In this document: one piece after another, positions 48,001 through 51,000 of the stretch
Position numbering within the stretch: position 1 is the stretch's first letter
Layout of the letters: every line of letters starts with the position of its first letter
Assembly: GCA_963754875.1 (NCBI GenBank)
Contig: CAVWHO010000003.1
Span: 22,976 to 86,975, forward strand
Length of the DNA stretch: 64,000 nt
Origin: Nitrospirota bacterium
GTDB lineage: Bacteria; Nitrospirota; UBA9217
Reading direction: 5' to 3'
Program-made: the position numbers

Positions 48001-51000
48001 TGCTCGCCGTCGTACCGCTTCACACCGAGGTACTGGGGATTGCTGTCTCTTCCATTTCTTGAACTTCCAACGCCTTTTTTATGAGCCATGACTCATCCTC
48101 CGAATTCGCTAACCTTATGCGATGATCTCTTTCACTTTGATTGCTGTATAATTCTGACGGTGGCCGTTGGTGTTACGGTATCCTTTGCGCCGCCTGTGCT
48201 TGAAAATGATGATCTTCTTGCCCCTGTCCTGTTCCACGACTTCAGCAGTGACCTTGGCGGATGCGAGCAACGGCTTTCCGATCGACAACTTTTCGCCGTC
48301 TGCGATCATGTAGACTTCTTTTAATTCAATAGTATCGCCCTTCTTTGCATCAAGGCTCTCCACCCTGACTATATCGCCGGGTGCAACCTTGTACTGTTTC
48401 CCTCCGGTATTGATGACTGCGTACATTAGAATCCTCCTTCACAAATTCAAACACCAACGTATTAAGAGGGCATAAAATACCATGTAACTTGCGGAGTTGT
48501 CAAGGGAAAAAACCGAATGAACCAAAAAAAATAGCTGCAAGGTCATTTGACAGAAGTACCAGACGCCTGTACAATTCAGTACAAAAGGCCCGCATGCAAG
48601 GTCACTCCATTTTTATGGCATATCACAAAGTCATCATACGAATACCCTCCCTTTTCCGCGACACACTCATTCAGAGATTGACAAAAGCTGCAATGTGTCT
48701 CGGCGTAATTGAAGAGGACGAATCCGTTACCGCCTTCTTTCCTGAAACAGCTGATATGACTTCAATCAGGAGTGAACTGTCCATCATGCAATCGCTCCTC
48801 GAAAAATCCGGCCGGGAACCGGCCTTAACCGTTGATTTTTCAATTATAGCAGACCAGGACTGGAACGAATCCTGGAAAAAGGGATTCGTGCCCATTGACG
48901 TGGGCAACCGCTTTACCATCCTTCCGCCATGGGAACAGCCAGAAAAAAGACCGTGTCAACCTCATCATCGATCCTGCGATGGCGTTCGGTACCGGCCATC
49001 ATGAAACCACGCGGTCTTGTTTGGTCCTCATGGAACGATATGCAGAGACAAGCAAAAAAAACAGTTTTCTCGACCTCGGGACCGGCACGGGGATTCTCGC
49101 AATTGCAGCATTAAAAATTGGGCTTTCATCGCGTCGTCGCAGTTGACACTGATCTGCTCGCCGTTGAAGCGGCACGGAAGAACGCTGAATTGAACCTGGC
49201 CGCTGGCATTGAAATCCGGGAATGTAGTATAGGAAGTTTGAGCGAGACCTATGATTTCATAGCAGCGAACATCATCTCAGGAGTCCTTGAACTGCTAGCT
49301 CCGCTGATTGCCACACACGTGAAGCCGGGAGGCATTATCGTCCTTTCCGGTATTCTTAGCGGTCAGGATGAGGCAGTGCTTACGGCAATGACGCGGGCAG
49401 GCCTTAACCTCATGGAGCGGTATCCGGACGGCAAATGGATGTCGCTGGCTGTCACACGCTGAGCAGATACATTATGGCAAATTCAGGGCAGAATCTCAGC
49501 GCAGATGCGAAATTTCTTTTTGCGGCATTAAAATTCGACACGAGACGAGTCTCGATTTACAAGTCAGCGATTTTTGTCTATAATGATTTACTATGATTGT
49601 CTATATACGTTTCGCATTGCTTTCGCTTATTTTCCTCATCGGTCCGTTTTTTTTCTTGCTGCTCGCCCCGTCGCTGACCTATGCTACGCCCGAGTATGCC
49701 CGCCAGACAGGACTGGAATGCAAAGAATGCCATATCGATACGATGGGCGGCGGACCGCTTACCGATGCCGGCAAACGATTTTTTGCTGATATTAAAGCCA
49801 AAGGCCGGTATCGTTCGCTGTCATTCACGCAGCGCGTTATTCGCCTCATCGTCGGCTATGTTCATATGCTTTCCGCGATCATCTGGTTCGGAACGATCAT
49901 GTATGTCCACGTTCTCCTGAAGCCGGCATACGCTTCCAAGGGCCTTCCCAAGGGTGAACTCCGGCTCGGCTGGATTTCGATGATCGCGATCCTGATAACG
50001 GGCATATTCCTGACCATCGCGCGCATGCCGACCTGGTCCGCGTTCATCGAGACCCGGTTCGGCATTCTCCTGAGCATCAAAATTGTTCTTTATCTGATCA
50101 TGCTGTTCAGCGCCGTTACGGTGACGGTCTATATCGGTCCTCGGTTGAGGAAGCAAGCGGCAACTCCGGCTCCGCTCCTGTCCGGTTCCAGCACCATCGA
50201 CGACTTGCGCCAGTTCGACGGCAAGGAGGGACGACCGGCATACATTGTCTATCAAGGGATCATTTACGATGTGACCAAAAGCAGACTCTGGAAGAACGGT
50301 GTGCACGTCATGAAACATGCTGCAGGAAACGATTTAACGGATTTCCTTCAGAATGCCCCTCATGGAGACGACAAGATACTGTCTTTACCCCAGGTAGGGA
50401 AATTGCTCGCCGCGGGCGAGAAAACCGCCCGCCCGTTCCACGAGCAGTTATTTTATTTCTTTGCTTACATGAATCTTGGCCTGGTGTTCGTAATCATCTT
50501 TGTCATCGCGTTGTGGAGATGGTGGTGAATAACCCGCATGCAAATCATAAAAAATTCGAATAGAGATCACGTCAAGCAATAACCGATCCGGCTCCATCCT
50601 GGAAGCCCCGGTCACACGAAAGATGTCGGCTTTGAACCGGAATCGGCTGTGCCTCATGTGGGAGCGGAAGGAGCGCCTGAAGTGGCTGATATCAACGTAG
50701 TCCGTCTCCTGTACATGGAGGATGACCCCGGGCTTGCCCGCCTGCTGCAGAAGACCCTGAACCGGCGCGGTTTTGTCGTTGATATAGCGGCAAATGGTGA
50801 AGACGGGCTGGCGATGATCAACTCCTCCCGTTACGACCTCCTGCTCATCGATTATAATATGCCGTTCCTGGGCGGTATTGATGTCATCCGCACGCTCGCA
50901 ACGAAAAAATCGCTTCTGCCTACGATCATGGTCACCGGTGAAGGTAATGAACTCGTTGCTGTTGAGGCGCTTAAGCTGGGAGTGGCGGATTATATCGTAA

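Follow-up and report, generated by a model that had tools for sequence, protein, structure and literature searches.

What does a single polypeptide with a predicted heme site on either face of the inner membrane do in a bacterium of the phylum Nitrospirota? The question is raised by P0001, whose gene lies at positions 49593 to 50528 (plus strand) of the window, the whole 64,000-nucleotide stretch of DNA that was analyzed. A survey of the same genome had described the protein as what looks like a one-polypeptide heme wire built of a heme c site, a CopD-like membrane part, and a cytochrome b5 domain.

The P0001 gene, its family, and its predicted topology

The gene is an intact, genuine, and conserved ORF of 311 aa, present in one copy in the host genome (4.3 Mb, 90% complete). 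A sigma-70-type promoter-like site (TTTACA, 17 nt, TATAAT; positions 49556 to 49584, plus strand) with 11 of 12 consensus matches ends 8 nt ahead of the ATG. Of the 79 loci with enough upstream DNA, 19 have a like site 5 to 14 nt ahead of an in-frame start, which backs the ATG and suggests that the transcript is probably leaderless. No recurrent palindrome or regulator box was found upstream in 80 loci, and a scan of the same DNA with FNR/DNR, HcpR, and NsrR-like box patterns gave a single loose match.

Homologs of P0001 number 2423 proteins at E≤0.001, out of 7866 candidates, and 80 of 89 confirmed genome loci were retained. Nearly all of these 80 loci are titled Nitrospirota, with few others (e.g., Desulfuromonadales and Deferrimicrobiaceae), and fused forms of the family extend to Anaerolineae; L023 and L076 also have long open frames, but these are extended upstream and are ruled out as fusions. 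Matches in a plasmid collection were to the b5 domain only (9 records). All of the 120 best homologs have exactly one CxxCH (Cys43, Cys46, and His47), as the survey had reported, and His91, His106, His238, His242, and His257 are each present in 120/120. The survey had listed His283 as conserved too, which holds for close homologs (114/120) but not for a distant set (3/41) made up of P0001 and 40 hand-picked near-full-length representatives out of 150 listed. All 41 members of this set keep Cys43, Cys46, His47, His91, Gly137, Lys163, Trp233, Gly236, His238, His242, Pro256, and His257, and His106 and Ser230 are found in 36/41 and 37/41.

Pfam assigns CopD to residues 124 to 190 (41.1 bits) and Cyt-b5 to residues 202 to 271 (31 bits), both over the cutoff, and gives no match on the CxxCH domain, which the survey had rightly described as missed by the domain tables. 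The CopD and b5 parts are already labeled in databases. A literature search outside subscription papers and bioRxiv supplements found no description of the P0001 protein; the main text of the cytb5M preprint (10.1101/2021.11.30.470528) contains no "CopD," "fused," or "cytochrome c," and PMC10654088 contains no CopD, cytochrome b5, or OmhA. The sequences listed with the cytb5M and Cyc2 preprints may include family members.

A structure model from a 110-row alignment (pLDDT 90.6, pTM 0.79) has a small N-terminal domain, a b5 domain, and helices at residues 78 to 108, 120 to 144, 155 to 190, and 282 to 310. The first three are the helices proposed by the survey and the fourth is the last helix that it had placed after the b5 domain; in the model, all four form one bundle, and the b5 domain is inserted between helices 3 and 4. 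Along the plus strand, the predicted order begins with a signal peptide (residues 1 to 31; positions 49593 to 49685), for which conserved spacing suggests cleavage after Ala31. It is followed by a putative periplasmic mini-cytochrome c of the Cyc2/OmhA type (49686 to 49802), composed of a short helix, the CxxCH (mature positions 12 to 16; 49719 to 49733), and a helix with L-T-x-x-G-x-x-F. Model and conservation place His91 (49863 to 49865), Trp98, Gly100, and His106 (49908 to 49910) in membrane helix 1 (49824 to 49916). Helix 2 (49950 to 50024) has Glu122 at or just ahead of its start and the invariant Gly137, and helix 3 (50055 to 50162) has the invariant Lys163 (50079 to 50081) and Met170. 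The cytb5M domain (50178 to 50408), predicted to be cytoplasmic, carries the axial ligands His238 (50304 to 50306) and His257 (50361 to 50363), and helix 4 (50436 to 50522) closes the bundle.

Which side of the membrane does each domain face? An octaheme cytochrome (PF13447) is fused after helix 4 in four representatives (P0154, P0155, P0156, and P0173), four further representatives have partial multiheme tails at this place, and the octaheme fusion, with nine CxxCH, also occurs in five Anaerolineae assemblies. Maturation of CxxCH motifs takes place outside the membrane, so both ends of the protein should lie outside and the insert behind helix 3 inside. Loop charge agrees with the positive-inside rule: the predicted inner loops average 3.2, 4.0, and 2.8 Lys+Arg, compared with 1.7 for the outer loop and 0.8 for the C terminus; the stretch ahead of helix 1 averages 2.6. 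Fusions and charges both bear out the cytoplasmic b5 domain of the survey's finding. From sequence and model, P0001 is predicted to be an inner-membrane protein with a heme site on either side, comprising an export signal, one outside CxxCH, four helices, and an inside bis-His cytb5M site.

A natural form without the b5 domain (P0210/P0384, 206 aa, three sources; loci L299 and L300) has Gln in place of His106. Matched relatives in L301 and L302 still carry b5, and the L302 sequence has His106 as well; b5 loss was one clean event in one lineage, and no b5-less protein was found in the genome-contig collection. The idea that His106 and the b5 domain strictly go together is rejected because the 5/41 distant members without His106 still have b5.

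The N-terminal heme c domain

What kind of cytochrome is the domain without a Pfam match? The motif AXPXFAR[Q/K][T/Y] was called unique to Cyc2 by Keffer et al. (10.1101/228056). The motif pattern gave 120 genome matches, of which 80 were examined and 79 yielded an ORF; keeping ORFs of at least 370 aa, and dropping 2 P0001-family members and 10 short or cut ORFs, left 67 Cyc2-type proteins. These have no hydrophobic helices and an aromatic last residue in 59/67, and they come from hosts such as Zetaproteobacteria, Gallionella, and Acidithiobacillus. When an HMM was built from the first 40 residues of these proteins, P0001 came top of 43,136 genome ORFs, with E 2.7e-8 against 0.076 for the runner-up, and a profile-profile comparison of the P0001-family mini-domain with Cyc2-type N termini gave a probability of 98.8%. 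Since the search pattern fixes the front half, the part after the CxxCH was scored separately: with this matrix, 27/41 members lie above all 342 control CxxCH sites, and P0001 itself lies below 11 controls. A small residue stands exactly 12 before the first Cys in 80/80 loci, 39/41 distant members, and 66/67 Cyc2-type proteins. With Cyc2 of Acidithiobacillus, Mariprofundus, and Gallionellaceae, the domain shares the putative cleavage 12 before the first Cys, the lead A-x-P-x-[FY]-A-R-Q-T-G, and a CxxCH followed by L-T-x-x-G-x-x-F and often G-Y.

Unlike Cyc2, P0001 belongs to the inner membrane by prediction, has four helices and a b5 domain and no fused beta-barrel porin, and its family is without sign of iron oxidation. 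Tyr usually replaces the Phe of the motif: the strict form occurs in 2/120 close homologs and 1/41 of the distant set, and allowing Tyr for Phe raises the close count to 90/120. The P-x-L that follows the CxxCH of Cyc2 (Pro 64/67, Leu 65/67) is absent from the P0001 family, which has G-x-L instead (Gly 32/41, Leu 39/41). Judged by these alignments and profiles, the heme c domain of P0001 is homologous to the N-terminal cytochrome of Cyc2.

The best PDB match of the mini-domain by profile is 6QVM (OmhA; E 0.014), which also ranks first of 48,161 by fold (Z 2.6, rmsd 2.2, 36 aligned, 39% identity). OmhA is the undecaheme S-layer cytochrome of Carboxydothermus ferrireducens; it shares the lead and a downstream P-L-T-x-x-G-x-x-F (PMC9250108 supplement). 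It differs from P0001 in that its loop carries an inserted second CxxCH and the chain goes on into an S-layer multiheme reductase. Its N-terminal region is described as being without a homolog among multiheme cytochromes (PMC9250108). Each score is weak singly but all agree, and sequence and model together indicate that the OmhA N terminus is homologous to the P0001 mini-domain. A search with residues 29 to 76 alone found no proteins of greater length. A mixed profile (A5) retrieved 6423 proteins, and the matches listed look like members of the P0001 family, Cyc2-sized proteins, and Cyc2 fragments. For the mini-domain, ESM Atlas returned nothing but scores below 0.9, Foldseek with its model (pLDDT 68) gave no match, and phmmer with one Anaerolineae mini-domain did not find 6QVM; no Cyc2 structure surfaced in a PDB search.

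The Cyc2/OmhA-type identity of this domain and the link to cNOR described below are new, and the survey had missed both the type of the domain and the norCB link. The "unique" motif of Cyc2 marks a portable heme module of ~40 residues, carried by an outer-membrane porin, an S-layer multiheme protein, and the inner-membrane P0001. Occurring on three unlike proteins, it means that motif or N-terminal matches are no proof of iron oxidation.

Another question is the sixth ligand of the mini-domain heme, since no conserved His or Met occurs in the mini-domain, either across the distant set or in the comparison with Cyc2. EPR is reported to show a low-spin Cyc2 heme that has two axial ligands (PMC13692758), and AlphaFold 3 models give it one (PMC13741234); heme 1 of OmhA groups with a heme type that is not termed penta-coordinate in PMC9250108. 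The OmhA insert carries a spare His. In cytochrome f, the N-terminal amine is a heme ligand. By analogy, the N-terminal amine may be the sixth ligand here too, and the 6QVM crystal together with the small P0001 offers a way to test the EPR-versus-AlphaFold 3 question of Cyc2.

The membrane bundle and the b5 insert

The b5 part matches the cytb5M structures 6NZX (E 1.9e-15) and 6VZ6 (E 7.1e-15) in sequence and agrees with their fold at an rmsd of 0.9 to 1.0 Å (TM-score, 0.93 to 0.94 on target; Z 14.4), upholding the type that the survey had assigned. In cytb5M, the axial ligands are His42 and His61, accompanied by Ser34 and the nonaxial His46 (10.1101/2021.11.30.470528). The counterparts in P0001 are His238 and His257, Ser230, and His242; of the b5 histidines that the survey had singled out, His238 and His257 are axial and His242 is the nonaxial one. 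By sequence and model, then, the b5 domain is a cytb5M domain with both heme ligands kept. Unlike the solved cytb5M, a free 8-kDa domain, it is an insert in a membrane protein, so that the functionless cytb5M, described as the ancestor of the heme-binding PGRMC1/MAPR proteins (10.1101/2021.11.30.470528), gains a concrete setting.

The bundle is harder to place. The survey had ascribed invariant histidines to its three membrane helices; the helices stand, but helices 2 and 3 have no His, and both membrane histidines, the invariant His91 and the less constant His106, are in helix 1, 15 residues apart. A conserved bis-His membrane pair was not found in the 41-member distant set, and His283 is rejected as a general membrane-heme ligand because of its loss from most of that set. 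The bundle resembles CopD importers (YebZ and YcnJ; PF05425) and HemJ/PgdH2 (PF03653) in its four helices, an H-x6-W-x-G in helix 1, and a Lys in helix 3. In alignments, His91 and Lys163 fall on a His and a Lys of the genome's own CopD, encoded by a separate gene, and on the His and Lys invariant in 10/10 HemJ proteins; being common to CopD and HemJ, they are by themselves no indication of heme. Of the two conserved His of the host CopD, His91 corresponds to the second, and the first has no counterpart in P0001. By spacing and model position rather than by alignment, His91 would equal His154 of the YebZ 135/154 pair, which is reported to be required for copper uptake (PMC11923076). CopD importers are described as having eight helices and needing both His (PMC11923076, PMC13344008), and a CopD copper importer is rejected because P0001 has four helices and lacks the first His. 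It also is half the size of CopD, has no CopC domain, and scores 35.5 bits on NCBIfam CopD NF033808 versus a cutoff of 195; no copC was recognized among the annotated recurring neighbors of P0001 loci, on which no CopC profile was run.

Could the bundle instead be a HemJ/PuuD-like membrane oxidase or dehydrogenase of a small cytoplasmic substrate, with heme c as the exit? The site would lie at the inner helix ends, at Tyr104, His106, Pro111, Gly117, Pro119, Glu122, and Asn294. With the b5 insert omitted, the bundle aligns end to end with 10 HemJ proteins (probability 64%, E 8.8e-6). In HemJ, a His and a Lys have reportedly been proposed as heme b ligands. HemJ is described as a b-type hemoprotein (PMC13564367), a proposal for PuuD has it oxidize urate on the inner side and hand the electrons to a cytochrome c on the outer one (PMC4562309), and PF03653 was not found in the host genome, all of which would suit such an enzyme. 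However, P0001 and HemJ have no more than His, Trp, Gly, Tyr, Lys, and Asn positions in common, the match to the PuuD profile is negligible (3 to 4% probability), and no heme-synthesis or purine genes were recognized among recurring neighbors (16 markers mapped). Membership in HemJ/PgdH2 is rejected because PF03653 has no match on P0001 and the HemJ invariant motifs are not kept, and the PuuD urate oxidase, with an eight-helix Urate_ox_N and a C-terminal His/Met cytochrome c, is rejected because the cytochrome of P0001 is N-terminal. P0001 further differs from CopD and HemJ in its heme domains on both faces. An oxidase of this kind is improbable.

By fold, the bundle matches four-helix cytochromes b at Z 9.1 to 10.7 (rmsd 4.1 to 5.0 Å, 127 to 142 aligned), with cytochrome b6, HyaC, FdnI, and CybB at Z 9.3 to 10.7; unrelated bundles match it as well, and de novo ones outscore these cytochromes. 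Di-heme four-helix cytochromes b have two bis-His pairs on two helices; P0001 is rejected as one of them because His91 and His106 are on one helix and have no conserved partner His. In the best reading, it is like FdnI, HyaC, CybB, and cytochrome b6 in that a helical bundle joins redox centers at or across the membrane, and in PuuD, too, an outer cytochrome c is joined to a membrane domain. P0001 departs from all five in lacking two bis-His pairs, in showing no significant sequence similarity to them, and in carrying a cytoplasmic b5M in the same chain. P0001 is outside the Cyc2, CopD, HemJ, and di-heme cytochrome b families, and its b5 domain alone belongs to a known family. By analogy, one membrane heme at His91 is plausible, and a second may perhaps sit at His106, where a conserved partner is missing.

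Gene neighborhoods and a possible role in N-oxide reduction

Neighbors were counted for 16 mapped markers in 80 loci, many of them short (79 fetched plus the window; L011 left out). The most frequent are cupin (36), norB (28, within 8 kb), HPP (28), norC (27), CBS (26), and a NapH/CcoG-like Fe-S protein (26); cbb3 (6) and HAO-like (5) genes are rare. norB is directly upstream on the same strand in 10/80 loci. All full NorB sequences (26/26) have the NorB motif H-L-W-V-E-x-x-x-E, and NorC is diheme in 23/23. norBC is described as prevalent in these groups (PMC11033732).

Does the link extend beyond gene order? Among 301 genomes of the phylum, 91 have a P0001-family gene (94 matches minus 3 b5-only), 77 have norB, and 63 have both, leaving 28/91 carriers without a norB match. 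In the host's own family (54 genomes, which as kin are not independent), both genes, the P0001 gene only, norB only, and neither occur in 34, 6, 4, and 10 genomes; the corresponding counts are 36/4/6/8 for HPP, 32/8/8/6 for CcoN as a cbb3 control, and 22/18/5/9 for HAO. Neither HAO nor cbb3 tracks the P0001 gene in this family, and HPP follows it roughly as closely as norB does, so the gene may be tied to an island of nitrogen-oxide genes and not to NOR itself. As a partner in the host organism, HAO is rejected, since no HAO-family gene was found in its 90% complete genome.

A NorQ/CbbQ-type gene is present in only 4/38 norB-carrying genomes of the family, a scarcity that would fit P0001 being a factor that matures or reactivates NOR and other metalloenzymes, one that performs redox-coupled delivery of Fe/Cu or heme with His91 as a metal ligand and perhaps replaces NorQ/NorD. 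The alignment of His91 with the second CopD His (and, by spacing, YebZ His154) speaks for such a factor, as do the likeness of the Fe-S neighbor to CcoG, with cbb3 genes near in the 6 loci above, and the ancestral relation of cytb5M to heme-binding MAPR proteins. The four helices, the missing first His, the low NCBIfam score, the separate CopD gene, and the failure of cbb3 to track the P0001 gene all weigh against it, and a permanent octaheme fusion suits electron feed better than a chaperone. We consider this explanation rather unlikely.

Other genes also recur in the 80 loci: histidine kinase in 15, peroxiredoxin in 13, protoglobin-PsiE in 11, and Rrf2 in 10. P0001 might then be a transmembrane NO/redox sensor or buffer, in which the outer heme would bind NO or register the redox state and pass a signal to b5M; with no conserved His/Met sixth ligand, that heme may have an open site. 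Yet the protein lacks an output domain, the link to the kinase goes along with prmA in local synteny, the low-spin Cyc2 heme has two axial ligands by EPR (PMC13692758), the octaheme fusion would be unexpected, and the NO-type boxes scanned for upstream yielded just the one loose match. A sensor is very improbable on this evidence.

The octaheme fusions point elsewhere. Stand-alone relatives of the fused octaheme have a quinol-oxidizing module (NapC, NrfD, cytochrome b6, or multiheme-b561) nearby in 39/75 loci, or 23/32 where the flanks are full; for the fusions the count is 0/5, a sample of only 5 related genomes. We lean, by a small measure, toward P0001 as an inner-membrane electron-supply module for periplasmic N-oxide reductases. 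This reading draws on the fusions and their lack of a quinol-oxidizing module, on norB near 28 loci and in 63 genomes together with the P0001 gene, on the NapH/CcoG-like neighbor, and on the use of the same heme c unit for electron transfer in Cyc2 and OmhA. It also draws on the overlay of the bundle on cytochrome b6, HyaC, FdnI, and CybB (Z 9.3 to 10.7) and on the cytochrome c assembly proteins encoded by the host genome. The targets would be cNOR, via the diheme NorC, in Nitrospirota and the HAO-like octaheme where fused, making the family a candidate electron donor or activator for HAO-like octahemes and P0001 one for the NorQ-less cNOR of abundant groundwater and soil Nitrospirota.

In such a module, heme c would be attached by CcsA/CcmC-type maturation, and the bundle may hold one heme b near the outer face, between His91 and Lys163, and perhaps a second site at His106. 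Electrons might enter from quinol or, through the b5M heme, from a cytoplasmic donor, for which the NapH-like Fe-S neighbor is a candidate, and would exit through the Cyc2-type heme c. A full route from b5 to heme c across the membrane is a real, if minority, possibility; a core fed by quinol, in which b5M acts as an accessory relay, is unlikely, though well conceivable.

Several observations count against electron supply: there is no conserved membrane His pair, His91 and Lys163 are also found in CopD, the fold matches are bundle-generic, nearly a third of carriers (28/91) lack norB, and b5 was lost in one lineage. In the host genome, norCB is on another contig (C16) than the P0001 gene, and three Rieske/cytochrome b sets plus NrfD modules could supply NorC. 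P0001 as a substitute for a missing bc complex is rejected, as those three sets are present.

How much of the one-polypeptide heme wire remains? Its architecture and topology stand and a redox role fits the neighbors, but the membrane offers no conserved bis-His pair and a b5-less form exists. Heme c and the b5 heme being on opposite faces, membrane hemes would be needed between them, and the heme wire is only partly supported. A complete wire would run from the cytb5M heme through one or two membrane hemes (His/Lys and His106, in a CopD-type bundle) to a Cyc2-type heme c whose sixth ligand is the N-terminal amine freed by signal peptidase, and in this complete form it is unlikely. If true, it would carry cytoplasmic electrons directly to NO and nitrite reductases, bypassing quinone, give cytb5M its first function, imply that CopD-type bundles can be hemoproteins, and provide a small model for the sixth ligand of Cyc2.

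The gene island downstream of the haem c–CopD–cytb5M gene

Genes for a cupin, a peroxiredoxin, Rrf2, HPP, CBS and a protoglobin-PsiE fusion form a recurring island (window 52726-58674) downstream of P0001, the gene for the protein that joins a Cyc2-type haem c domain, a CopD-like bundle and a cytb5M domain; in relatives, norCB, MOSC, DUF6448 or cbb3 genes are added to this island. The fusion, a PsiE membrane domain joined to a protoglobin, is encoded on the minus strand at 57772-58674 and was found in 11 of the 80 loci.

In the peroxiredoxin gene, on the plus strand at about 55340-55955, the codon for the peroxidatic residue is a TGA that lies in frame. 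Among 12 related loci checked, this codon is TGA in 11 and TGC in one. The window gene probably encodes a selenocysteine peroxiredoxin.

Three genes near P0001 are broken across two or three frames: a prmA-like gene (48570-49462), an SfsA-like gene (53775-54924) and the CBS gene (57094-57685). Related loci carry intact copies of prmA and CBS, in contrast to the split copies in the window, and the frame splits in all three genes are likely assembly indels.

Other forms of the constituent domains

Tandem cytb5M domains, two to six per protein, occur in 31 of the 150 listed representatives (e.g., P0135, P0148, P0161 and P0185); a signal or anchor precedes them at the N-terminus in some of these proteins. 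A short ORF on the minus strand of a 104-kb contig (L093:1593-1748) encodes a signal peptide and the Cyc2-type mini-domain alone (52 residues from the mature start), possibly a free form of this domain or a fragment.

Other CopD-like and cytochrome b561 proteins

Locus L201 (G000:C13:65333-67249, minus strand) encodes a fusion in which a full CopD is joined to a His-rich linker and to additional domains at the C-terminal end. A third match to PF05425, a weak one, lies at C22 (L203). At L244:7369-9405 and at 12 other loci, a cytochrome b561 domain is fused to a multihaem cytochrome c, next to stand-alone HAO-like octahaems.
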